NCBI GenBank assembly: GCA_041477795.1
Contig: JBGOUY010000002.1
Coordinates: 1 to 37,782 of the forward strand
From: a bacterium
GTDB lineage: Bacteria > SAR324 > JACQKK01
Direction of reading: 5' to 3'
Length of the DNA: 37,782 nucleotides
Each line of letters starts with the position of its first letter. Positions within the stretch are counted from its first letter, which is position 1. Shown one piece after another: positions 16,199 to 27,033 of this stretch. The position numbers were made by a program, and so were the translations under genes. Below the pieces are notes generated by a model. The model saw only the letters and a program-made list of their open reading frames with translations. It searched no databases and had not been told where the DNA came from.

Positions 16199-17287
16199 AT
16201 GGCAGCAACCCTGAAAAGGAACGTCCTCATCCTCAATGGCGACGGCATCGGCCCCGAAGTGACCCGCCAGGGCGCCAAGGTGCTGCGCGTGATGGCCGCC
16301 AAGGCCGGCATCGCGCTCAAGCTGGAGGAGGGCCTGATCGGCGCCGCCGCGCTGGAGGCCACCGGCAAGCCGCTGCCCGAGGAGACCTTCGCCAAGGCCA
16401 AGGCCAGCGACGCGATCCTCTTCGGCGCCGTGGGCGACCCGCGCTACGACAAGGCCGGCTCCACCGAGCGCCCCGGGCGCGGCCTGCTCACCCTGCGCAA
16501 GGAACTGCAGCTCTACGCGAACCTGCGGCCGGTCAAGGTCTTCGCCGCCACCATCGACGCCTCGCCGCTCAAGCGCGAGCGCATCGAGGGCGTGGACCTG
16601 ATGATCGTGCGCGAGCTGACCGGCGACATCTACTTCGGCGAGCCGCGCGGGCGGCGCGAGGAGGCGGGCCAGAAGTTCGCCATCAACACGATGATCTACA
16701 CCGACAAGGAGATCGAGCGCATCGTGCGCTTCTCCTTCGAGCTGGCCCGCAAGCGCCGCCGCAAGCTGACCTCCGTGGACAAGGGCAACGTGCTGGAGGT
16801 GAGCGCGTTCTGGCGCGAGATCGCCGGGCAGGTGGCCCAGGACTTCAAGGACGTCGCCTTCAACTCGCTCTACGTGGACAACGCGGCGAATCAGATCATC
16901 CGCGACCCGCGCCAGTTCGACACGATGGTGACGGGCAACCTGTTCGGCGACATCCTCAGCGACGCCGCCGCGAACCTGGCCGGCTCGCTGGGCATGCTGC
17001 CCTCGGCCAGCCTGGGCCCGCGCAACGCGCTCTACGAGCCCTGCCACGGCTCCGCGCCGGACATCGCCGGGCGCGACAGCGCCAACCCGGTGGCCTCCAT
17101 CCTCTCGGTGGGCATGCTGTTCCGCCACACCTTCGGCCGGCCGGACGCCGACGCGGCCATCGAGCGCTCCGTGGAAGCGGTGCTGGAGGAGGTGCGCACG
17201 GCGGACATCATGGCTCCCGGCAAGCGCCAGGTGGGCTGCACCGAGATGGGCGACCGCATCGCCGCGCACCTGGAAGCGGCGGCGTAG
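16199..17287 (+). CDS. leuB: 3-isopropylmalate dehydrogenase family (isocitrate/isopropylmalate DH superfamily), 362 aa
   Basis: LNGDGIGPEV, LLTLRKELQLYANLRP, IVRELTGDIYFGEP, NLFGDILSDAAANLAGSLGMLPSASL, EPCHGSAPDIAG. No leuC or leuD is present in the window, so tartrate or D-malate DH specificity cannot be excluded. Confidence 0.8.
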   Translation: MAATLKRNVLILNGDGIGPEVTRQGAKVLRVMAAKAGIALKLEEGLIGAAALEATGKPLPEETFAKAKASDAILFGAVGDPRYDKAGSTERPGRGLLTLRKELQLYANLRPVKVFAATIDASPLKRERIEGVDLMIVRELTGDIYFGEPRGRREEAGQKFAINTMIYTDKEIERIVRFSFELARKRRRKLTSVDKGNVLEVSAFWREIAGQVAQDFKDVAFNSLYVDNAANQIIRDPRQFDTMVTGNLFGDILSDAAANLAGSLGMLPSASLGPRNALYEPCHGSAPDIAGRDSANPVASILSVGMLFRHTFGRPDADAAIERSVEAVLEEVRTADIMAPGKRQVGCTEMGDRIAAHLEAAA

Positions 17288-17552
17288 CAGCCGTCTCGGC
17301 AGGGCCGCTTGCAGCGCTCTCAAGAAATAGCTTCCTGCCGCAGCTCCGAGACGCTCGCGTCGCTCGCTCCTCAGGACCACGGCAGGAAGCCCGAGTTCCT
17401 GAGGAGGGCTCCGCAGGAGCCCGTCTCGAAGGGCCGGGCTTCCCGCGCGTCTTATATTCTTGAGACCGCGTTATAGCGGCCGCCTGCGGGGGCCGCCTGC
17501 GGGGGTCGACGCGCCTTGCCAGCACCGGCCGGCTGGTCTATACACGGATCGA
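17288..17552. repeat. Composite intergenic repeat element
   Basis: Outer imperfect inverted repeat CTCAAGAAATA (17319) / TATATTCTTGAG (17453). Inner 11-bp perfect inverted repeat GCTTCCTGCCG (17330) / CGGCAGGAAGC (17380). Direct repeat CCGTCTCGxAxGGGCCG at 17291 and 17421. Perfect 13-bp tandem duplication GGCCGCCTGCGGG x2 at 17478..17503. Confidence 0.6.
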
Positions 17553-18311
17553 GTGCCCGCACCCCGCCGCCCGACCCGCCACGGCCTGCCTGGAGTCCGT
17601 CCCATCGCCGCGACCCGACCGGAGAATCGCCGCCAGGCCCTGCTGGAGGCCGCCGCGCGCCGCTTTCTGCAACGGGGCTATGCCGCCGCCTCCCTGCGCG
17701 AGATCGCCGCGGACGTGGGCATGCAGGTCGGCTCGATCTACTACCACTTCCCCTCCAAGGCCGAGCTGCGCGCGGCGGTGCACGAGGAGGGGCTGCGCCG
17801 CATCCGCGCGGCCGTGACGGCCGCGCTGGCCGTGCCCGGCACGCCCTGGGAGCGGCTCGAAGCGGCCTGCGTGGCGCACCTGCGCGTGCTGCTGGAAGGC
17901 GGGCACTTCTTCCAGGCGGTGATGCGGGAGATGCCGCGCTCCCACGAGCCGGGCTGGCAGCGCCTCATCGCCGCGCGGGACGCCTACGAGGCGATCTTCG
18001 CCGGCTTGCTGGACGAGCTGGCGCTGCCGCCGCAGGTGGAGCGGCACGAGCTGCGCCTGCTGCTGCTGGGCGCGCTGAACTGGACGCACACCTGGTACCG
18101 CCCCGGCGGGCAAGGGCCGGCGGGCATCGCCCGGCACTTCCTGCAGGTGCTGCGCCGGGGGCTGGAGTCGCCGGCGGGCTGGGCTGGCGGCGACGCCGTG
18201 CAGGGCCCAGTGCAGGGCACCGTGCAGGGCCCAGTGCAGAGCGCCGCGGAAGGCACTGTGCGCCGCGCCCGCGGCCTGGCCCGCCCGGCCGCGCGGAGGG
18301 CCCGCCATTGA
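17553..18311 (+). CDS. TetR/AcrR-family transcriptional regulator (about 252 aa)
   Basis: HTH region RRQALLEAAARRFLQRGYAAASLREIAADVGMQVGSIYYHFPSKAEL. There is no in-frame ATG before the HTH, so GTG 17553 is chosen. The first possible start, TTG 17460, lies inside the repeat element. The start is uncertain. Confidence 0.75.
   Translation: MPAPRRPTRHGLPGVRPIAATRPENRRQALLEAAARRFLQRGYAAASLREIAADVGMQVGSIYYHFPSKAELRAAVHEEGLRRIRAAVTAALAVPGTPWERLEAACVAHLRVLLEGGHFFQAVMREMPRSHEPGWQRLIAARDAYEAIFAGLLDELALPPQVERHELRLLLLGALNWTHTWYRPGGQGPAGIARHFLQVLRRGLESPAGWAGGDAVQGPVQGTVQGPVQSAAEGTVRRARGLARPAARRARH
18198..18245 (+). repeat. In-frame 12-nt tandem repeat x4 inside the TetR C-terminus
   Basis: GTGCAGGGCCCA GTGCAGGGCACC GTGCAGGGCCCA GTGCAGAGCGCC, encoding VQGP VQGT VQGP VQSA. 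Confidence 0.9.
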
Positions 18312-18418
18312 CAGCGCGGCTGACACCACGGCTGACCTCACCGCCGGCGCCGCGGCGCCCGCGGCGGGCCCCCTGGCGAGCGTTGACGCCCCCGTGCTGA
18401 ACGACCGCTGATCCGCCC

Positions 18419-19414
18419 ATGACGCCACCCAAGACGCCGCCCAGCGCCCGCCTCGGCCCCGAGCATCCGCAGTGGATCGCCCGCCTGCGCGCCGGCGACC
18501 GGGCCACCCTCGCCCGCGCCATCACCCTCATCGAGAACGAGGCGCCGGGCGCCCAGGCCGTGCTGCGCGCCATCTTCCCCCACACCGGGCGGGCGCAGGT
18601 GGTCGGCTTCACCGGCGCGCCGGGCGTGGGCAAGTCCACCCTCGTCAATGCCTACATCGGCGAGCTGCGCCGGCGCGGGCGTAGCGTGGGCGTGATCGCC
18701 GTCGACCCCTCCAGCCCCCTCAGCGGCGGCGCCATCCTCGGTGACCGCATCCGCATGTCCGAGCACGGCGGGGACGCCGGCGTCTTCGTGCGCTCGCTCG
18801 CCGCACGGGGTCACCTGGGCGGGCTGACCCGCATGACCGCGCGCGTCGTGGACGTGATGGACGCCGCCGGGCGGGACGTGGTGATCCTGGAGACCGTGGG
18901 CACGGGGCAGTCGGAGGTGGAGGTGGCCGAGATCGCCCACACCAAGGTCGTCATCGGCGCGCCCGGGCTGGGCGACGAGATCCAGGCCGTCAAGGCGGGC
19001 GTGCTGGAGATCGCGGACGTGCTCGTCGTTAACAAGGGCGATCATCCCCTGGTCGAGGAGACGATGCGCCTGCTGCGCGACGCGCTGCACATGTCCCGCC
19101 CCAAGCCGTGGGCCGTGCCCGTGCTGCGCACGGTGGCCACCACGGGCGAGGGCATCGCGGAACTGGCGGACGCGATCGACGCCCACGCGGCCCAGCTCGA
19201 CCCGGCCGAGCGGCGGACGGCTCCGCGCCTGCGCATGCGGCGCCTGCTGGCCGCCACGGCCGCGCGGCAGGCCCGGCGCCGCATCGAGGCGCTGCACGGG
19301 CCGGCCTTCGATGCGCTCTGCGATGCGGTGCTGCGGGGCGAGCTGGACTTCGAGGAGGCCGCCCGGCAGGCGCTCACGGCAGCTCCGGACGGCCCGCCCG
19401 AGCCGCAGCCATGA
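18419..19414 (+). CDS. meaB: Methylmalonyl-CoA-mutase-associated G-protein chaperone MeaB/ArgK family (331 aa)
   Basis: LARAITLIEN, P-loop GAPGVGKST, VIAVDPSSPLSGGAILGDRIRM, ILETVGTGQSE, VVNKGD. Confidence 0.9.
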   Translation: MTPPKTPPSARLGPEHPQWIARLRAGDRATLARAITLIENEAPGAQAVLRAIFPHTGRAQVVGFTGAPGVGKSTLVNAYIGELRRRGRSVGVIAVDPSSPLSGGAILGDRIRMSEHGGDAGVFVRSLAARGHLGGLTRMTARVVDVMDAAGRDVVILETVGTGQSEVEVAEIAHTKVVIGAPGLGDEIQAVKAGVLEIADVLVVNKGDHPLVEETMRLLRDALHMSRPKPWAVPVLRTVATTGEGIAELADAIDAHAAQLDPAERRTAPRLRMRRLLAATAARQARRRIEALHGPAFDALCDAVLRGELDFEEAARQALTAAPDGPPEPQP

Positions 19415-20031
19415 GCGCCCGCAGGACTGTCCGCCCGCACCGCGCCAAGCGCCCGGCGAGCGCTCCAGCCGCCGGCACCCGCGCGCAGCGGCTGGCAGAG
19501 CTGGCCCCGCGCGATGCCTGGGCGCGGCAGATGGGCGCCCGGCTGGTCGCGGGCGGGCGCGGCGGAGCCGGGTCCGTCACGCTGCGCCTGCGCGTCACGG
19601 AGGCCCACACGAACTTCTACGGCTTCTGCCACGGCGGCGTGATCTTCACCCTGGCCGACTCCGCCTTCGGGCTGGCCTGCAACGCCGCGGGGGCGGTCAC
19701 CGTGGCCCTGGACGCCCACATCGCCTTCACCCGGGCCGTGCGTGCGGGCGAGGAGCTGATCGCCACGGCCCGCGAGCTGGCCCGCACGCGCCGCACGGGC
19801 AGCTACCGCGTCGAGGTGCGCACGGGGGACGGCCAGCGCGTCGCGCACTTCCTCGGCACGGCCTACGTGCCTGGCGAGGCCGGCGCGACCGGCGCTGCCG
19901 CCCCGGCCGGCCCGGCAGCGCCCGCCGCGCCGCGCCCGCCGCGCCAGGGGCGCTCGCCGCGAGCCCCGCGCACGCCACGCATGCCTCGCACGCCGCGCAA
20001 GGTTCGCAGCCGGCCCGCAGCGGAGCGCTGA
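19411..20031 (+). CDS. PaaI/hotdog-fold acyl-CoA thioesterase with Arg/Pro-rich N- and C-terminal extensions (206 aa)
   Basis: The ATG overlaps the meaB stop (ATGA). The core NFYGFCHGGVIFTLADSAFGLACNA...TGSYRVEV is typical of PaaI-type thioesterases. The tail ...PRPPRQGRSPRAPRTPRMPRTPRKVRSRPAAER is low complexity. Confidence 0.72.
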   Translation: MSARRTVRPHRAKRPASAPAAGTRAQRLAELAPRDAWARQMGARLVAGGRGGAGSVTLRLRVTEAHTNFYGFCHGGVIFTLADSAFGLACNAAGAVTVALDAHIAFTRAVRAGEELIATARELARTRRTGSYRVEVRTGDGQRVAHFLGTAYVPGEAGATGAAAPAGPAAPAAPRPPRQGRSPRAPRTPRMPRTPRKVRSRPAAER

Positions 20032-20032
20032 G

Positions 20033-20968
20033 ATGGAGCTGACGCTGGCCACGGGCGACTATGCCCACACGCGGGCGCTGGCGGCCTGCCTTGCCGAACG
20101 CGCGCCGGGGCTCGCGCTGCGGCACGAGATCGACCGGCCCGTGCGCATCTTCGCACGCGCGCTGGGCGCCGACCGGCCCTACGCCGCCGCGGAGATGTCC
20201 CTCGCCACCAGCTACGTGCTGGCCGACGCGAGCGACCGGCGCTTCGTGGCGCTGCCGGTCTTTCCCTCGCGCATGTTCCGCCACTCGGCGTTCTACGTTG
20301 CGGGCGCCAGCGCGCGGCCCGAACAGCTCGCCGGCGCGCGCATCGGCGTGCAGCGCTACGGCATGACGGCCGCCGTGTGGGCGCGCGAGCTGCTGCAGGA
20401 CGGCTACGGCATCGCGCCGGAGCGGATGACGTGGTGGATCGCCGAGCCCCAGTTCTTCCAGCCCCGCGGCATCGCGCTGAACGTGGCGGCCGGACCGGAC
20501 GCGCTGGAGCGCATGCTGCTGGCCGGCGAGCTGGACTGCCTGTTCTCCGTGGACGAGCCCGCCGCGTTCCGCAGCGGGCGCGTGCGGCGCCTGTTCCCGG
20601 ACTTCGCCGCGGCCGAGCGCGAACGCCATGCGCGCACCGGCATCTTCCCCATCATGCACACGGTGCTGCTGCAGCGCGCCCTCCTCGAGCGCGAGCCGAC
20701 GCTGCCCGCCGCGCTCCTGGCGGGCTTCGAGGCGGCCAAGCGCATCGCGCAGGACTGGATCCGCGACACCGACCACTCCTCGCTGCCCATCCCCCTGCAG
20801 CACGGCTGGAGCCGCGAGATGGAAGCGCGCTTCGGCGCCGACCCGTGGCCCTATGGCCTCGCCGCCAACCGCCCCGTGCTCGAACGCTTCGGCGCCCTCA
20901 TGCACGAGCAGGGACTCACCCGGCGCCAACTGGCGCCCGCGGACGTGTTCCTCGACCTGGACCCGTAA
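20033..20968 (+). CDS. PhtD-like protein (4,5-dihydroxyphthalate decarboxylase family; periplasmic-binding-protein-like fold), 311 aa
   Basis: The ATG lies 1 nt after the thioesterase stop. Motifs I recall from this family are present: AEMSLATSY, LPVFPSRMFRHSAFYV, GIFPIMHTVLL, DPWPYGLAANR, HEQGL. Confidence 0.65.
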   Translation: MELTLATGDYAHTRALAACLAERAPGLALRHEIDRPVRIFARALGADRPYAAAEMSLATSYVLADASDRRFVALPVFPSRMFRHSAFYVAGASARPEQLAGARIGVQRYGMTAAVWARELLQDGYGIAPERMTWWIAEPQFFQPRGIALNVAAGPDALERMLLAGELDCLFSVDEPAAFRSGRVRRLFPDFAAAERERHARTGIFPIMHTVLLQRALLEREPTLPAALLAGFEAAKRIAQDWIRDTDHSSLPIPLQHGWSREMEARFGADPWPYGLAANRPVLERFGALMHEQGLTRRQLAPADVFLDLDP

Positions 20969-20979
20969 GCCCGCACCGT

Positions 20980-21012
20980 GGCCGCTGCGGGGGCGCTGCC
21001 CCCGCAGCGGCC
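20980..21012 (+). terminator. Terminator-like hairpin after the PhtD-like gene (no U-tract)
   Basis: Perfect 14-bp stem GGCCGCTGCGGGGG / CCCCCGCAGCGGCC with the 5-nt loop CGCTG, 12 nt after the stop. No T-run follows it. Confidence 0.4.
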
Positions 21013-21140
21013 CCGCAAGGGAGCGAGCCCCCTTGACCCCTATTGCATTCAGCAACTGTGCGGCTGCAACGCAGCCGCACACGTCCATAAGGGGTGCGCG
21101 AGGGGGCCTGCTCCCTCGCAAGATGTGGTCTTGCCGCAAC
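21013..21140. repeat. Nested inverted-repeat element between convergent genes
   Basis: An imperfect long inverted repeat (GCAAGGGAGCGAGCCCCCTT ... AAGGGGTGCGCGAGGGGGCCTGCTCCCTCGCAAG) encloses a perfect 11-bp hairpin TGTGCGGCTGC-AAC-GCAGCCGCACA (21057..21081). Confidence 0.55.
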
Positions 21141-21144
21141 TTGA

Positions 21145-22338
21145 TCAGGCCACGCGTTCCAGCAGCACGGCCGTGCCCAGGCCGCTGCCGGCGGGCACAG
21201 TGGCCCCGCCCCGCCGTCCGCCGCGCTGTTGCAGGGCATGGGCCAGGTGCAGCGTGATGCGCAGGCCGGACATGCCCACCGGATGCCCCATCGCCACCCC
21301 GCCGCCGTCCACGTTCAGCCGCTCGCGGGGCCACTTGCCCATGCGCTCGCAGGCCAGCAGTTGCACGGCGAAGCCCTCGTTGCACTCGATCAGGTCCAGG
21401 TCGTCCACGCGCAGCCCGGCGGACTGGAGCGCGGCGTCCAGCGCCGTGACGCACGAGTAGCCCATCAGCGTCGGGTCGCAGCCCACCTGCGCCGTGCCGG
21501 GCAGCAGGATGCGCGCCAGGGGCGTCAGCCCCAGGCGGGCCAGCCCGCGCTCGTTGCAGACCAGCGCCGCGGCGGCGCCGTCGTTGATGGGCGAGGCGTT
21601 GCCGGCCGTGACGGAGCCGCCCGGCTTGACGGGCGCCAGGCGCGCCAGCGCTTCCAGCGAGGCGTCGGCGCGCGGGCTCTCGTCGCGCTCGAGCACCAGC
21701 GAGCCGCCCCGGCTGCGCGGCACCTCGATGGGCACGAGCTCCCCGGCCAGCCGCCCCGCCTCCTGCGCCGCAATGGCGCGCGCGTGGGAGACGACGGCGT
21801 AGGCGTCCATCTCCGCACGGGCAAAGCCGTCCACGCGGGCATGGTGCTCGGCCACGTCCACCATGTACCAGGGATCGCCCCACATCTTGCTGCCGGCCAG
21901 CGTGCACTCCTTGATGGTGTCGATGAACTCGCCGTGCGCCAGGCGCAGGCCCCAGCGCGCGCCGGGCACCATGTGCGGCGCGTTGCTCATGGACTCCAGG
22001 CCCAGCGCCAGCACGCAGTCCACCTCGCCCAGCGCCACCTGCTGCGCGGCCAGGATCAGCGCCATCATGCCCGAGCAGCACTGCATGTTGACGGTGAAGG
22101 CGGGAGCAGTGGAGGGCACGCCGATGCGCGTGGCGACGATGCGCGCCGGGTTGGACTCCGTCATGTCCTGCAGCACCATGCCGGCGATGACGCGCTGCAC
22201 GTCCGCCGGCTGGAGGCCCAGGCGCTCCAGCAGCGCGGCCGCCACCGTGGTGCCGAATTCCGTGGCGCGCAGGGGCAGCAATGCCCCGCCGAAGCGCCCG
22301 ATGGGGCTGCGCACTCCCGAGACCAGATAGGCTTGCAT
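21145..22338 (-). CDS. Acetyl-CoA C-acyltransferase (thiolase), 397 aa
   Basis: MQAYLVSGVRSPIGRFGG, NMQCCSGMMA (active-site Cys), NEGFA, NVDGGGVAMGHPVGMSG. The start at MQAYLV has GGGAG upstream. Confidence 0.87.
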   Translation of the reverse strand: MQAYLVSGVRSPIGRFGGALLPLRATEFGTTVAAALLERLGLQPADVQRVIAGMVLQDMTESNPARIVATRIGVPSTAPAFTVNMQCCSGMMALILAAQQVALGEVDCVLALGLESMSNAPHMVPGARWGLRLAHGEFIDTIKECTLAGSKMWGDPWYMVDVAEHHARVDGFARAEMDAYAVVSHARAIAAQEAGRLAGELVPIEVPRSRGGSLVLERDESPRADASLEALARLAPVKPGGSVTAGNASPINDGAAAALVCNERGLARLGLTPLARILLPGTAQVGCDPTLMGYSCVTALDAALQSAGLRVDDLDLIECNEGFAVQLLACERMGKWPRERLNVDGGGVAMGHPVGMSGLRITLHLAHALQQRGGRRGGATVPAGSGLGTAVLLERVA

Positions 22339-22378
22339 GGCGATGCTCCCGGCATTCCCCGCGTGGCCGACGTCCCCC

Positions 22379-22398
22379 AACCGAACGATCGTTCGGTT
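22379..22398. promoter_or_regulatory. Perfect 20-bp palindromic operator candidate AACCGAACGATCGTTCGGTT
   Basis: It lies 41 nt upstream of the thiolase ATG and 3 nt downstream of a predicted -10. It shares the half-sites ACCGAAC/GTTCGGT with the site at 23184..23201. Confidence 0.65.
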
Positions 22399-22401
22399 AC
22401 G

Positions 22402-22430
22402 ACTCTACCCAGCCGCGGGCGCCGGTGCAA
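22402..22430 (-). promoter_or_regulatory. Sigma70-like promoter for the thiolase gene
   Basis: On the minus strand this reads TTGCAC (22430..22425), a 17-nt spacer, then TAGAGT (22407..22402). The palindrome follows immediately. Confidence 0.5.
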
Positions 22431-22443
22431 CCACCGCGGGCGG

Positions 22444-23034
22444 CTACGTGGCGGGCGCGCTGACGCGCTTGGCCAGCAGGATGTCCGGCCGGCCCGGGCC
22501 GTTGGCGTCCGGGATGACGCCCACGACCACGAAGCCCAGCCGCCGGTAGAACTCCAGCGGGTGCGGCGCGCGCGCTGTGATGCGCTGCAGCGCGCCGAGC
22601 GGATCGGCGAAGAGGTCCTCGCCGGCCAGGGAGGTCAGGCCCGCCTCGTCGTCCGCCCCCACCCACAGCGTGCGGCCGCCCTGCTCGTAGACGAGGGCTT
22701 CCAGGTCGAGCACCAGCGCCCGGCCCACGCCGCGCCCGCGCTGGGCGGGGTCGACCACGAGCGGCTGCAGCTCCCAGGTCTCGCCGTAGTACTGCGTGAG
22801 GCCGCCCACCCAGCCCAGCAGCTTGCCGGAGTCGTCCAGCGCGCCGCGCGCCAGGTTGGGCGGCTCCAACAGCACGCGCACTTCGCCCTCGGCCACCAGC
22901 ACATTGGGCCAGGCGCGCGGGGCGAGGTCGCGGAAGCCGTCCACGAGGAGCTGCGCCGCCTCGCGCAGCACCGGGCGCGGCTGGCCGGCCAGGTCCACCA
23001 GCCGGAACGGGGAGGAGTGCCGTCGGGTTGCCAT
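22444..23034 (-). CDS. GNAT-family N-acetyltransferase, AAC(6')-I-like C-terminal pattern (196 aa)
   Basis: The acetyl-CoA site is QRGRGVGRAL. The C-terminus HPLEFYRRLGFVVVGVIPDANGPGRPDILLAKRV resembles what I recall of AAC(6')-I-type enzymes. The start at MATRR has GGAG 6 nt upstream. ATG 23046 is an alternative. Confidence 0.78.
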   Translation of the reverse strand: MATRRHSSPFRLVDLAGQPRPVLREAAQLLVDGFRDLAPRAWPNVLVAEGEVRVLLEPPNLARGALDDSGKLLGWVGGLTQYYGETWELQPLVVDPAQRGRGVGRALVLDLEALVYEQGGRTLWVGADDEAGLTSLAGEDLFADPLGALQRITARAPHPLEFYRRLGFVVVGVIPDANGPGRPDILLAKRVSAPAT

Positions 23035-23153
23035 GTCCGACTCCATAGCACGGTCGCAACGGCGGCGCAGCCAGCGCAGGGACCTGGGCAGGCCCGGGCG
23101 TCGAGAGCGGGCGGCTTCGGCGATCGGGTGGTTTAGCGGCAACGCGCCGCGTC

Positions 23154-23182
23154 TTGACGGCTGTGGCGGCCATTGCTAGGTT
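23154..23182 (+). promoter_or_regulatory. Sigma70-like promoter for the mutase operon
   Basis: TTGACG (23154..23159), a 17-nt spacer, then TAGGTT (23177..23182). The palindrome begins 1 nt downstream. Confidence 0.5.
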
Positions 23183-23183
23183 T

Positions 23184-23201
23184 ACCGAACAACCGTTCGG
23201 T
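23184..23201. promoter_or_regulatory. Palindromic operator candidate ACCGAACAACCGTTCGGT
   Basis: It has perfect 7-bp arms with a 4-nt spacer, the same half-sites as 22379..22398, and the same position relative to the -10. It lies 65 nt upstream of the mutase ATG. Confidence 0.62.
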
Positions 23202-23265
23202 GACGGCCGCTGGCCGCCCACCCACCCATCGCCTTCGCGCCGCGAGACCCGCTCCGGAGCCGCCG

Positions 23266-24993
23266 ATGTTCGACGAGGACACGCTGCGCCGCTCCCGCGA
23301 AGCCGAGGCGGAATGGCGCACCCAGTACCGCCGCATCGTGGAGCGCTTCGGGGACAAGGCCCCGGCCCGCGCCACGGCGCCCGCCACCCACGGCGGGATT
23401 CCCCTCAAGAACGCGTACTTCCCCCACGACGTCGCGGGCCAGGACTTCTCCGCCATCGGCGCGCCGGGCCAGTACCCCTTCACGCGGGGCAACCTGGCGG
23501 CGCAGTACCAGCTCATGCACTGGGCCAACCAGCCGGTGATCGGCTACGGCCTGCCCGAGCACACGCGCGAGCGCATGGACCTGCTGGCGGCGCAGGGCAT
23601 GATGGGCTACTTCGGCCAGCGCTTCTACAACCTGGTCTACGACCTGGTCTCCCACGAGGGGCTGGACCCCGATCACCCGGCGGCGCGGGGGCGCATCGGG
23701 CAGTGCGGCATGGCCGTGTATTCCGTGGAGGACATGGAGCGGCTTTTCCACGACATGGATCTCACCCAGATGAACGTGATCCACATCACGTACTACCAGG
23801 TGATCCCCGCGCTGGCGCAGTACATCGCCCTGGCCGGGCGGCGCGGCATCGCGCCGGGCGACCTGCGCGGCAACTCCATGAACTGGTACCACCAGAGCGC
23901 CTACGTGGGCATGAGCGCCTTCCCGCCCGAGCAGGGGCACAAGCTGGCCGTGGAGCTGCTGGCCTACTGCGGGGCGCACATGCCGCGCTGGAACACGACC
24001 AACTTCTTCGGCTACGGCGTGGAGGAGGCGGGCGGCACGGCGGTGCAGGAGATCGGCCTGATGCTGGCCTACGGCATCGAGCTGGTGCGCTCCTGCCAGC
24101 GCGCCGGGCTGGCGCCGGACCAGGTGCTGCCGCGCTTCGGCTTCCAGATCGCGCAGGCCAGCGACTTCTTCGAGCAGGTGTGCAAGGTGCGCGCGTTGCG
24201 CCGCATCTGGGCCACCACCATGGCCGAGCACTTCGCCGCCAAGGATCCGCGCTCGCTGCACGTGCGCATCCACACGCACACCTCCGGCGTGGATCTGATG
24301 GCGCAGCAGCCGCTCGTGAACCTGATCCGCACGACCCTGCACGCCTTCGGCGCGGCCCTGGCCGGCACGCAGGCGATGGAGGTCTCCGCCTACGACGAGG
24401 CGCTCGCCATCCCCACCGAGCAGGCGGCCACGCTGGCCCTGCGCGTGCAGCAGGTGGTGCAGGAGGAGACCAATCTCACCACCGTGTCCGATCCGCTCGC
24501 CGGGTCGTACTACGTGGAGGCGCTCACGCAGCAGCTCGCCGAGGCGGCGCTGGCGCTGGTGGAGCAGATCGAGGCGCGCGGGGGCTACATCGCCGCGCAG
24601 AAGAGCGGCTGGCTGCGCGGCCAGGTGGAGACCTCCGCGGAACGCTGGCGCGAAGCGGTCAACTCGGGCCAGCGCCGCGTGGTGGGCCTCAACTGCTACC
24701 AGACCGACGAGCCGCCCCAGGGCAACACCTTCAAGGTCGACCCGGAAGTGGAGCGCATCGCCGTCGAGCGCGTGCAGGCCCTGCGCGCCCGCCGCGATGC
24801 CACCCGCCATGCCCAAGCCATGGCGGCCTTCGATGCGGTGGTGACGGACTTCGCTACGCGCGACGTCGCGGCGCTGGGCGAAAGCCGGCTCATGCCCGCC
24901 GCCATCGCCGCGGCGCAGGCCGATGCCACCACCGGCGAGCTGATGGGCGTGCTCAAGCAGCGCCTCGGCTGGCGCGCCCCGCACGAGACGTGA
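23266..24993 (+). CDS. Coenzyme-B12-dependent acyl-CoA mutase family, large (substrate-binding TIM-barrel) subunit, divergent (575 aa)
   Basis: GGAG lies 6 nt upstream of the ATG. Family motifs are present: PGQYPFTRG, DFFEQVCKVRALRRIWA, RIHTHTSGVDL, NLIRTTLHAFGAALAGTQA, YDEALAIPTEQAATLALRVQQV, DPLAGSYYVEALT. The N-terminal barrel motifs are non-canonical. Confidence 0.85.
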   Translation: MFDEDTLRRSREAEAEWRTQYRRIVERFGDKAPARATAPATHGGIPLKNAYFPHDVAGQDFSAIGAPGQYPFTRGNLAAQYQLMHWANQPVIGYGLPEHTRERMDLLAAQGMMGYFGQRFYNLVYDLVSHEGLDPDHPAARGRIGQCGMAVYSVEDMERLFHDMDLTQMNVIHITYYQVIPALAQYIALAGRRGIAPGDLRGNSMNWYHQSAYVGMSAFPPEQGHKLAVELLAYCGAHMPRWNTTNFFGYGVEEAGGTAVQEIGLMLAYGIELVRSCQRAGLAPDQVLPRFGFQIAQASDFFEQVCKVRALRRIWATTMAEHFAAKDPRSLHVRIHTHTSGVDLMAQQPLVNLIRTTLHAFGAALAGTQAMEVSAYDEALAIPTEQAATLALRVQQVVQEETNLTTVSDPLAGSYYVEALTQQLAEAALALVEQIEARGGYIAAQKSGWLRGQVETSAERWREAVNSGQRRVVGLNCYQTDEPPQGNTFKVDPEVERIAVERVQALRARRDATRHAQAMAAFDAVVTDFATRDVAALGESRLMPAAIAAAQADATTGELMGVLKQRLGWRAPHET

Positions 24994-25269
24994 CACGCTG
25001 CCGAAGCAACCGCGTGTGGGGGAGCACGCTCCCCCACCCCTGCGGGACTGCAAACGGGAAGCCGGGCGGGGTTCCGCACGAGAAATGACGCCGGGTCTCC
25101 CCGGCGACTGTGTCAGGGGCTCCGCCCCTGACCACCCCGCCAAGGGCCAATGGCCCTTGGAACCCGTATTTGCGGCAGTGGCTGGCTTGCCAGCCACTGC
25201 CGCCCAAAGAGGGGGTGCGGGGGAACGTGTTCCCCCGAATGCTTCTCTCGTTACAGGTGACCGAGCGCC
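24994..25269. repeat. Array of six near-perfect hairpins between the mutase large- and small-subunit genes
   Basis: The stems lie at 25017..25036, 25089..25106, 25112..25132 (9 bp), 25140..25160 (9 bp), 25172..25203 (14-15 bp) and 25219..25236. Loops are 3-4 nt. Confidence 0.8.
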
Positions 25270-25680
25270 ATGAGCGGACCGATCCGGGTGTTGCTGGCCA
25301 AGCCCACGCAGGACTGCCACGACCGCGGCGTGCGCTACGTGGCGCGCAAGTTCCGCGATGCGGGCTTCGAGGTGATCTTCACCAACTTCCTGCTGGCGGG
25401 CGAGGTGGTGCACACGGCGCTGGAGGAGGACGTGAACGTGATCGGCATCTCGTCCTCCTCGGGCGGGCACATGCCGGTGTTCGAGGACCTGCTGGCGGGC
25501 ATGCGCGAGCAGGGGCTGGACGACGTGATGGTGCTGGGCGGGGGCGTGATTCCGCCGGAGGATGCGGAGCGCCTGCGGGCCTGGGGCGTGAGCGCCATCT
25601 TCGGCCCCGGCACCAGCGCGGAGGACGCCATCGCCCTGATTCGCGCGCGCGTGCAGGCCGCGCCGGGCGGGCGCCCATGA
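25270..25680 (+). CDS. Cobalamin-binding small subunit of acyl-CoA mutase (136 aa)
   Basis: The B12-binding DxHxxG motif is present (QDCHDRG), followed by GISSSSGGH and VMVLGGGVIP. The size is typical of IcmB/HcmB-type subunits. Confidence 0.9.
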   Translation: MSGPIRVLLAKPTQDCHDRGVRYVARKFRDAGFEVIFTNFLLAGEVVHTALEEDVNVIGISSSSGGHMPVFEDLLAGMREQGLDDVMVLGGGVIPPEDAERLRAWGVSAIFGPGTSAEDAIALIRARVQAAPGGRP

Positions 25681-26666
25681 GCGCCGGCACGGGCACGGCG
25701 GCGACGGGAGCGGCACGCTTCCGCCGCATCGCCATCCTGGGCGGCGGCGGGCTGATGGGCCACGGCATCGCCCTGGCCTGCCTGCAGGCGAGCCCGGCGG
25801 AGGTGGTGCTCGTCTCGCGCCGGGCCGAATCGCTGGCGCAGGGCCGCACGCTTGTGGAGAGCGGGCCCTTCGGGTTCGCCAAGGCGGTGCAGCGCGGCAA
25901 GCTGAGCCAGGCGCAGGCACAGGAGATGCTGAGCCGGCTGCGCGGCACGACCGATTACGGCGAGGGCCTGGCCGGCTGCGATCTCGTCTTCGAGTCCGTG
26001 CCGGAGGTCGTCGCGCTCAAGCAGGAGACCCTGCGCCTGGCCGAGCGGCACGCGCCGGCGCACGCCGTCTTCGCCAGCAACACCTCCTCCATCCTCATCT
26101 CCGAGCTGGCGGCGCAGCTCGAGCGCCCGGGGCGGCTGGTGGGCGCGCACTGGTTCTATCCCTCCAACGTGATGCCGCTGGTGGAGGTCGCGCGCAGCGA
26201 GCTGAGCGAACCCGCGGCGCTGGACGCCGTGGTGGACTACCTGCGCGCGCTGGGCAAGAAGCCGGTGGTGGTCAAGGATTCGCCCGGCTTCTTCATGACG
26301 CGCTTCATCAACAACTTCCTGGCCGAGGCGATGCGCCTGGTGGAGCTGGGCATCGCCGGGCCGGCGGAAGTGGACGAGATGGTGCGCACGGGCCTGGGCT
26401 GGCCGATGGGCGTGTTCGAGCTGCTGGACGATACGGCGAGCTTCGACTCGTTCTACCACGCGCAGGAATACCTCTTCGCCACCTGCGGCGAGCGCTACGC
26501 GATTCCCCCCCTCGCGCGCAAGGTCTTCATGGCCGGCTATCGCGGCGCCCCGGCCCTCAAGCCGGGCAGCCGGGGCGGCTGGTACGACTTCCTGGGCGCC
26601 GCCCGCCCACCGCGATCCCTCCCGCCCGGCAAAGCCGGGACGCCCGACAAGAAAGGCGGGCGCTGA
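25677..26666 (+). CDS. 3-hydroxyacyl-CoA dehydrogenase family (Hbd-like), 329 aa
   Basis: The ATG overlaps the small-subunit stop (ATGA). Rossmann motif IAILGGGGLMGHGIA, then FASNTSS, GAHWFYPSNVMPLVEV, VKDSPGFFMTRF. Confidence 0.85.
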   Translation: MSAGTGTAATGAARFRRIAILGGGGLMGHGIALACLQASPAEVVLVSRRAESLAQGRTLVESGPFGFAKAVQRGKLSQAQAQEMLSRLRGTTDYGEGLAGCDLVFESVPEVVALKQETLRLAERHAPAHAVFASNTSSILISELAAQLERPGRLVGAHWFYPSNVMPLVEVARSELSEPAALDAVVDYLRALGKKPVVVKDSPGFFMTRFINNFLAEAMRLVELGIAGPAEVDEMVRTGLGWPMGVFELLDDTASFDSFYHAQEYLFATCGERYAIPPLARKVFMAGYRGAPALKPGSRGGWYDFLGAARPPRSLPPGKAGTPDKKGGR

Positions 26667-27033
26667 AGGCGCAGCCGTCCCGCCGTACGCCGTGCGGAGC
26701 CCCTGCTCCGCCCGCCGCCGGCCCGGCCGAGCGGCCCCGGCCGCAGCGCGCCCGATTCCGCTGCACGGGCGACGCTCCTTTTCCCCGCCACTCAACATCC
26801 GTTCGCACCCAAATTAAGGGGGTTGAGCCGAATTATCATTGCTGGGCTGAATGCCCGGTGATAGGAATGCAAGCGGGGTGGGCGGCCCCGTCCTTGAGTT
26901 ATTCTTGGCGCCGGCGTCCGGCGCGTGGCCACCGCTCTGGCGGTCGCGCGGCCTGACGCAAGCGGTGCCTGTTACCGGATTCTTGTGGCGTCGGCGACCG
27001 ACGGTGCGCTGCACCCGGTGCGCAGCCTTCCCC

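Follow-up and report, generated by a model that had tools for sequence, protein, structure and literature searches.

Palindromic sites at thiolase and B12-dependent acyl-CoA mutase promoters as probable operators of a TetR_C_24 repressor

In Thermus thermophilus HB8, the TetR protein PaaR (TTHA0973) represses two promoters, responds to phenylacetyl-CoA and has paaABCDE, paaK and paaI as its targets. The PaaR consensus CNAACGNNCGTTNG was derived by Sakamoto et al. from only two promoters (PMC6651687). In vitro selection produced the consensus AACnAACGTTnGTT, and the native sites, AACAAACGACCGTT and AACGGCCGTTAGTT, read AAC-N4-GTT (PMC6651687). Two further TetR repressors of CoA-thioester catabolism are PaaR (BCAL0210) of Burkholderia cenocepacia, which has the operator ACCGACCGGTCGGT, and PfmR of T. 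thermophilus (3VPR). The PfmR operator is a similar inverted repeat of the ACCGA type.

AibR of Myxococcus xanthus (PDB 5K7Z) controls a thiolase gene, and its ligand, isovaleryl-CoA, is a branched acyl-CoA. AibR binds its operator, the 18-bp inverted repeat ACCTACCG-N2-CGGTAGGT, only when liganded (PMC5389471). DarR of mycobacteria and Rhodococcus (PDB 8SVA, 8SVD) recognizes ATACT-N4-AGTAT, a palindrome with a 4-nt spacer, and its binding to DNA is enhanced by ligands (PMC10636190).

We analyzed a stretch of 37,782 nucleotides (termed the window) from a bacterium of the SAR324 lineage. The window has a G+C content of 72%, and its genes were mapped by using frame-specific GC3 and searches of Pfam and NCBIfam (Table 1). 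Two palindromic sites, termed O1 and O2, precede a thiolase gene and an operon for a B12-dependent acyl-CoA mutase, and a tetR gene is located in the same window.

Table 1. Positions of genes, predicted promoters and putative operators in the window
Feature	Positions	Strand	Basis or remark
Isopropylmalate/isocitrate dehydrogenase	16199-17287	+	Gene map
TetR-family regulator (TetR_N + TetR_C_24), proposed repressor	17553-18311	+	Pfam
MeaB G-protein chaperone	18419-19414	+	Downstream of tetR
PaaI-type hotdog thioesterase	19411-20031	+	Downstream of tetR
Protein without assigned function	20033-20968	+	Downstream of tetR
Acetyl-CoA C-acyltransferase (thiolase), proposed O1 target	21145-22338	-	Pfam and NCBIfam
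O1, ACCGAACGATCGTTCGGT	22380-22397	.	Core of a 20-bp palindrome; top genome-wide matrix score
Predicted thiolase promoter	22402-22430	-	-35 TTGCAC (22430-22425), 17-nt spacer, -10 TAGAGT (22407-22402)
GNAT acetyltransferase	22444-23034	-	Between O1 and O2
Predicted mutase promoter	23154-23182	+	-35 TTGACG (23154-23159), 17-nt spacer, -10 TAGGTT (23177-23182)
O2, ACCGAACAACCGTTCGGT	23184-23201	.	Matrix score second-best genome-wide
Mutase operon, proposed O2 target	23266-26666	+	Same gene order in L001-3, L005, L054 and L055
Acyl-CoA mutase large subunit	23266-24993	+	Mutase operon
B12-binding small subunit	25270-25680	+	Mutase operon
3-Hydroxyacyl-CoA dehydrogenase (HADH)	25722-26666	+	Mutase operon

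O1 is enclosed by a perfect 20-bp palindrome (AACCGAACGATCGTTCGGTT, positions 22379-22398), and O2 has perfect 7-bp arms around a non-palindromic 4-nt centre. Both sites carry ACCGAAC-N4-GTTCGGT exactly, as the first-pass annotation had read them: two palindromes with common half-sites and 4-nt spacing. O1 is 41 nt from the thiolase ATG and lies, together with the thiolase promoter, in a 105-nt gap 3' of the GNAT stop codon, which is not a divergent region. O2 is 64 nt from the mutase ATG and resides in the interval that separates the GNAT gene from the divergently transcribed mutase gene.

The sites are rare. When up to two mismatches to ACCGAAC-N4-GTTCGGT are allowed, O1 and O2 remain the only matches in the window, in keeping with the earlier claim that no further pair of half-sites is present. 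One hundred shuffles of the window give an expectation of 0.07 matches, and none of the 100 contains two or more. The 4.26-Mb assembly (91% complete) contains only two exact copies, none with one mismatch and seven with two. A weight matrix trained on 33 sites, all of them from other organisms, ranks O1 first (26.6 bits) and O2 second (24.8 bits) in this genome. Ten first-order Markov genomes have a mean of 0.1 sites of at least 24 bits, whereas the real genome has two within ~820 bp.

The PaaR consensus given in the first-pass annotation proves to have been quoted correctly. O1 (CGAACGATCGTTCG) matches it exactly, as claimed, and O2 (CGAACAACCGTTCG) has one mismatch. The native PaaR sites fit the form AACnAAC-N4-GTTnGTT, which is found, flanks included, in the TetR family of the window. 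The resemblance between PaaR and window operators therefore probably reflects a genuine similarity in DNA recognition. A PaaI-type thioesterase is also linked to the regulator in both loci. However, the selected PaaR consensus lacks the 4-nt spacer that separates AAC and GTT in O1 and O2, and the predicted targets in the window are the thiolase gene and the B12 mutase/HADH operon rather than paa genes. A search of the genome for a phenylacetate cluster yielded one borderline PaaA/C match, with 29.6 bits over half the model, and the matrix scan brought up no other strong operator. Because the targets differ, assignment to a PaaR regulon was rejected, and the window regulator is not filed as PaaR.

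The outer ACCTA/TAGGT of the AibR operator corresponds to the ACCTAAC-N4-GTTAGGT variant of the window's TetR family, but its inner half-site is CCG rather than AC. The sites of Burkholderia PaaR and PfmR have a GACC/GGTC core without the 4-nt spacer, and their target genes are different. DarR has another half-site, its ligands are cyclic nucleotides, it binds DNA as a dimer of dimers, and its targets are not related to mutases.

Each palindrome is preceded by a predicted promoter, and both promoters are weak by the Escherichia coli sigma-70 consensus, which they match at 8 of 12 positions. The hexamers and 17-nt spacers are present as the first-pass annotation gave them. Its description of the two sites as identically placed holds for the order of promoter and site, but not for the exact offset: the -10 box is 1 nt from the 18-bp core of O2 and 4 nt from that of O1 (3 nt from the 20-bp palindrome). 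Thus, the 18-bp inverted repeats begin 1-4 nt past the predicted -10 boxes and overlie the core promoters. A generic scan of positions 22300-23300 for sigma-70 promoters and terminators returned nothing, both promoters being below the scanner's threshold. The predictions for the thiolase and mutase promoters are instead based on reading of the sequence and on conservation.

This conservation extends to several genomes. On the mutase side, TTGACG is kept 28-31 nt 5' of the operator in L005, L054 and L055. TTGC-type hexamers (TTGATT in L054) are found 5' of orthologous thiolase genes, with the distance to the operator unchanged. More broadly, 17 of 41 unique sites have a TTGAC box 27-31 nt 5' of the palindrome, compared with an estimated chance expectation of ~0.2. 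Because the two hexamers and the 17-nt spacer between them together occupy 29 nt, an operator at this distance would begin where the -10 box ends, or slightly further on, and span the transcription start. An operator over the start site is what one would expect if repression works by occlusion, and the conserved position of the motif relative to the -35 and -10 boxes fits the occlusion layout that was originally claimed. The operator of Burkholderia PaaR, unlike O1 and O2, sits between the -35 and -10 boxes.

The centres of the half-sites are 11 bp apart, so that both face the same side of the helix. Published lengths are 15-17 bp for sites of one TetR dimer and 22-32 bp for sites of two (PMC5397183). 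At 18 bp, the window sites are slightly longer than the first range and well below the second, so one dimer per site is likelier.

On comparative evidence, we consider it likely that the palindromes are operators of the TetR repressor that is encoded at 17553-18311. The proposed mechanism is an ordinary, textbook TetR switch. One TetR dimer would occupy each 18-bp site, where it would cover the transcription start and block formation of a productive RNA polymerase complex. The promoters of the thiolase gene and of the operon for the mutase large subunit, the B12 subunit and 3-hydroxyacyl-CoA dehydrogenase would thereby be shut off. An acyl-CoA, most likely the mutase substrate or a close intermediate of the pathway, would enter the C-terminal domain of TetR and spread the two DNA-binding heads, and the repressor would leave the operator. 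The operator of tetR itself appears to have been lost in this genome, so the repressor is probably constitutive.

The effector is probably an acyl-CoA. Every gene that is linked to tetR acts on CoA thioesters, and acyl-CoA sensors among the nearest solved relatives of the protein are AibR, KstR2, Bacillus FadR and PfmR. Because the substrate pocket of the mutase appears non-canonical (see below), the effector can be described no more closely than as some acyl-CoA that belongs to the pathway. In AibR and DarR, the two nearest structural relatives whose response to ligand is known, the ligand strengthens DNA binding, and this makes the direction of the ligand effect uncertain here. The same TetR protein and sites could in principle use the acyl-CoA as a co-repressor, which would result in feedback shut-off rather than induction by substrate. 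AibR, which requires its ligand and likewise has a thiolase gene among its targets, resembles the window TetR closely in structure, and DarR is the closest solved relative of the window TetR in sequence. However, the thiolase, the 3-hydroxyacyl-CoA dehydrogenase and the mutase look catabolic, whereas the route regulated by AibR is biosynthetic. Moreover, PaaR is reported to be a repressor with phenylacetyl-CoA as effector, and acyl-CoA releases Bacillus FadR from DNA. KstR2 is said to be released by acyl-CoA in the same way. Co-repression is therefore unlikely, and induction by release of the repressor is preferred. The analysis shows the sites and their uniqueness, the conserved palindromes at orthologous promoters, the link with tetR within loci and among genomes, the promoter geometry and the co-variation of protein and site. 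That TetR binds the sites, that it represses, which ligand it senses and which way the ligand acts are inferred.

The TetR protein scores 57.7 bits with TetR_N and 65.9 bits with TetR_C_24, both over the Pfam cut-offs, and it is the only protein of the TetR_C_24 type in the genome. NCBIfam contains no model that names it. A confident AlphaFold model (pLDDT 85.7) has nine helices. Profile and fold searches place DarR, PfiT, PfmR, KstR2, AibR and Bacillus FadR nearest among solved proteins. DarR shares ~32% identity with the window protein (profile E-value 2e-29), PfmR is a significant match in both sequence and fold, and AibR has a TM-score of 0.69-0.80 despite only ~25% identity. The helix-turn-helix is nearly invariant across homologues (G60, S61, Y63, Y64, F66 and K69), in correspondence with the invariant AAC/GTT core of the operators.

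The association of this protein, the candidate regulator of the first-pass annotation, with the motif was examined in other genomes. The TetR protein was searched against species genomes, and the loci were then defined by tblastn with the neighbouring proteins. Orthologous loci, with proteins that are 55-73% identical, are found in metagenome-assembled genomes of α-proteobacteria, and L054 and L055 come from a metagenome scan. The order in L001-3 and L054 is thiolase, divergent mutase large subunit, B12 subunit, HADH, tetR and meaB, such that tetR sits within the mutase operon. The tetR-meaB pair of L005 and L055 adjoins the divergently transcribed thiolase and mutase. The tetR orthologues are always linked to these same thiolase/mutase genes.

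The operators are conserved at these loci as well. L005, L054, L055 and L001-3 each have two AAC-N4-GTT palindromes in the thiolase/mutase intergenic region, one immediately 3' of each -10 box, and these include equivalents of O2. L005, for instance, carries GCCGAACGATTGTTCGGT and GCCGAACGATTGTTCGGC, and L055 carries ACCGAACGGTTGTTCGGT and ACCGAACGTTTGTTCGGT. An equivalent site is also present upstream of thiolase orthologues that are 69-76% identical to the window protein. In G006, a member of the same family, ACCGAACATACGTTCGGT is found immediately 3' of TAGGTT and 53 nt before the thiolase gene. The sites proposed as operators in the window therefore have two equivalent palindromes at orthologous thiolase and mutase promoters.

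The phyletic distribution of the motif follows that of the regulator and the mutase. A TetR orthologue is present in three of 64 genomes of the order (G000, G006 and G009). Among the 41 closest relatives searched, only G006 carries an orthologous mutase (78% identity) besides G000, and exact copies of the motif are confined to the same two genomes. G009 has the TetR protein and one site.

A motif before a regulator's own gene is a classical sign that the motif belongs to that regulator. A copy precedes tetR in L055, L004 and G009, and the motif upstream of the G006 tetR is reduced to a relic with four extra bases. A tblastn scan of metagenomes produced 80 TetR homologues with 35-64% identity. 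In 28 of the longer metagenomic loci, tetR is followed by a mutase of another subtype, often with meaB and a thioesterase next in order. Matrix sites of at least 14 bits occur within 300 nt 5' of tetR for 43 of the 60 metagenomic homologues with enough upstream sequence, and a site heads the tetR-mutase-meaB operon in most loci that are long enough to tell. L054, L097 and L098 have no site at tetR, but a site heads the operon (the operon content was examined for L097). A strict search for AAC-N4-GTT with at least six of seven palindromic pairs found 41 matches in 575 kb, of which 30 fall within the 16.7 kb upstream of tetR that make up 2.9% of the sequence. The family consensus is A-[C/A]-C-[A/T/G]-A-A-C-N4-G-T-T-[T/A/C]-G-[G/T]-T. 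Linkage, phyletic co-occurrence and the motif before genes of homologues thus support the TetR protein at 17553-18311 as the predicted regulator.

The protein and its sites also co-vary. Residue 58 of TetR, located two positions before the invariant Gly60, varies with operator position 4/15. Gln or Arg at residue 58 is accompanied by G at 4/15 in 17 of 20 half-sites, Leu by A in 40 of 42, and Lys by T in 24 of 28. The exceptions are L084 and the site before tetR in L004. The co-variation follows phylogeny in part. However, the combination of Lys and T occurs in at least two clades of the TetR tree, one separate and one nested in the Gln/G clade of the window protein, so the association is not a single inherited event. 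Residue 59 aligns with Lys44 of DarR and Lys47 of AibR, both of which read bases. In DarR, bases are read by the conserved Gly at the start of helix 3 and by the residue before it, and the co-varying residue of the window's TetR family is adjacent to these.

An operator before the regulator's own gene is the usual layout for TetR proteins, and lack of one is unusual for the family. No operator was found before tetR in the window, where the best matrix score is -13 bits (~17201-17640), and the gene is 4-5 kb from O1 and O2. These facts could mean that the palindromes are genuine binding sites that are read by a different regulator. This is very unlikely, because the genome encodes no second TetR_C_24 protein, the motif stands before the genes of homologues in other genomes, motif, TetR and mutase co-occur phyletically, and residues of the recognition helix co-vary with the site. 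Moreover, no pointers to another regulator were found.

It is still less probable, indeed extremely so, that the palindromes are non-regulatory (a dispersed repeat, a terminator or RNA hairpin, or a chance pair), even though inverted repeats are abundant in the window and O1 lies 3' of the GNAT stop codon, a possible place for a terminator, because the genome has only two copies, no T-tract follows the palindromes and no terminator was detected in the 22300-23300 scan, the letters of the half-sites are conserved rather than their pairing, and the position of the motif relative to the -35 and -10 boxes is fixed across many genomes. An Rfam search of positions 17000-27000 gave no match near the palindromes, and the predicted folding of the two leaders is no better than that of shuffles (z-scores +0.4 and +1.7). 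Copy number, terminator scan, Rfam and folding together exclude an RNA element, a terminator and a dispersed repeat.

The mutase is nearest to 2-hydroxyisobutyryl-CoA mutase (E-value 1e-92). In the alignment, it has Val at the position of Tyr89 of methylmalonyl-CoA mutase (MCM) and Ile90 of HcmA, and Val at that of HcmA Asp117. Gly and Met occupy the positions of MCM His244 and MCM Gln197, respectively. We take these four positions to be specificity determining. The substrate pocket predicted from this alignment is non-canonical, and its specificity residues do not correspond to those of methylmalonyl-, isobutyryl- or 2-hydroxyisobutyryl-CoA mutase.

No TetR regulator of acyl-CoA mutases emerged from searches of the literature. 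In dozens of uncultured bacteria, B12 mutase genes have the putative repressor and its site nearby, and we found no earlier account of this pair. It is plausible, and we propose this tentatively, that the window is one case of a widespread and undescribed TetR_C_24 clade that is dedicated to operons for B12-dependent acyl-CoA mutases and MeaB. The operator of this clade would be ACCnAAC-N4-GTTnGGT, with Gln or Arg, Leu, and Lys at residue 58 specifying G, A and T at position 4, and its ligand would be the substrate of the mutase with the non-canonical pocket. If this proposal is true, the repressor could serve as a sensor with which to find the mutase substrate.

The gain lies in the assignment, by which an operator motif is tied to a TetR clade found with B12 acyl-CoA mutases across many uncultured bacteria. 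The assignment may provide a regulon-based handle on mutases of unassigned substrate, including that of the window, and makes TetR a candidate acyl-CoA biosensor. The correspondence between residue and base amounts to a small, testable specificity rule for TetR proteins.

One further site in the genome, C332:184 (AGCGAACGATTGTTTAGT, 22 bits), is located 98 nt 5' of an acyl-CoA dehydrogenase gene and is an unconfirmed candidate for a third operator. Such a site is absent at the orthologues of this gene in G006 and G009, which are 77-79% identical. The remaining genome matches, of 18-19 bits, are inside coding sequence or in unrelated contexts and were set aside.

Other genes of the window probably stand apart from the predicted regulon. 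Those at 18419-20968 are probably co-transcribed with tetR and outside operator control here. The GNAT gene is missing from the position between the operators in all related loci. It is probably a later insertion that moved O1 and O2 800 bp apart, and thus no member of the core regulon. In L055, a small membrane ORF is found where the window has GNAT.

In the window, the thiolase and mutase genes are separated by a GNAT gene, whereas in all related loci they are directly divergent. In one of these, L055, a small membrane ORF occupies the position of the GNAT gene. The divergent region seems to tolerate insertions, with an operator retained at each promoter.

No operator was found upstream of tetR in the window (17288-17552), where a tandem duplication of GGCCGCCTGCGGG is present. 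At the corresponding position, G006, a genome of the same family, carries AACCTAACGAGTGATCGTTCTT, which looks like an operator disrupted by four additional bases. This lineage seems to have lost autoregulation of tetR. The TetR protein of the window ends in a low-complexity tail of ~45 residues (GPVQGTVQGPVQ...), Arg-rich at its end, that is absent from most homologues and unlike the tail in G006.

The thiolase/mutase/tetR locus of G006 is fragmented. Its second exact operator has a phage-type integrase gene ~240 nt away, and its orthologous mutase (L137, contig C56) has no operator. The upstream neighbour of this mutase gene resembles, on visual inspection, an IS-type transposase gene.

The nearest relative of the mutase large subunit is HcmA. 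Val occupies the positions equivalent to MCM Tyr89/HcmA Ile90 and to HcmA Asp117, Gly replaces MCM His244, and Met replaces MCM Gln197. The substrate is probably none of those characterized.

The third-ranking matrix match in the genome, AGCGAACGATTGTTTAGT (22 bits), is 98 nt upstream of an acyl-CoA dehydrogenase gene; such a site was not found at the orthologues in G006 and G009, the latter of the same order.

At two loci, other CoA-ester operons begin with a related TetR_C_24 gene that has an operator of the same type. One operon encodes methylcrotonyl-CoA carboxylase subunits and enoyl-CoA hydratase and lies directly 3' of a tetR-mutase-meaB-thioesterase unit; the other encodes a P450, an AMP-ligase and an SCP-x-like thiolase.

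Locations of features in the window and in other loci
Feature	Location	Remark
TetR C-terminal tail	window 18170-18311	
GNAT gene	window 22444-23034	between O1 and O2; AAC(6')-I-like match under NCBIfam cut-offs
Mutase large subunit	window 23266-24993	
AACCTAACGAGTGATCGTTCTT	L051:9080-9115	G006
Second exact operator	L044:10963	G006, contig C11
AGCGAACGATTGTTTAGT	C332:184-201	L134
Related TetR_C_24 genes	L077:14190-19243; L097:5884-10555
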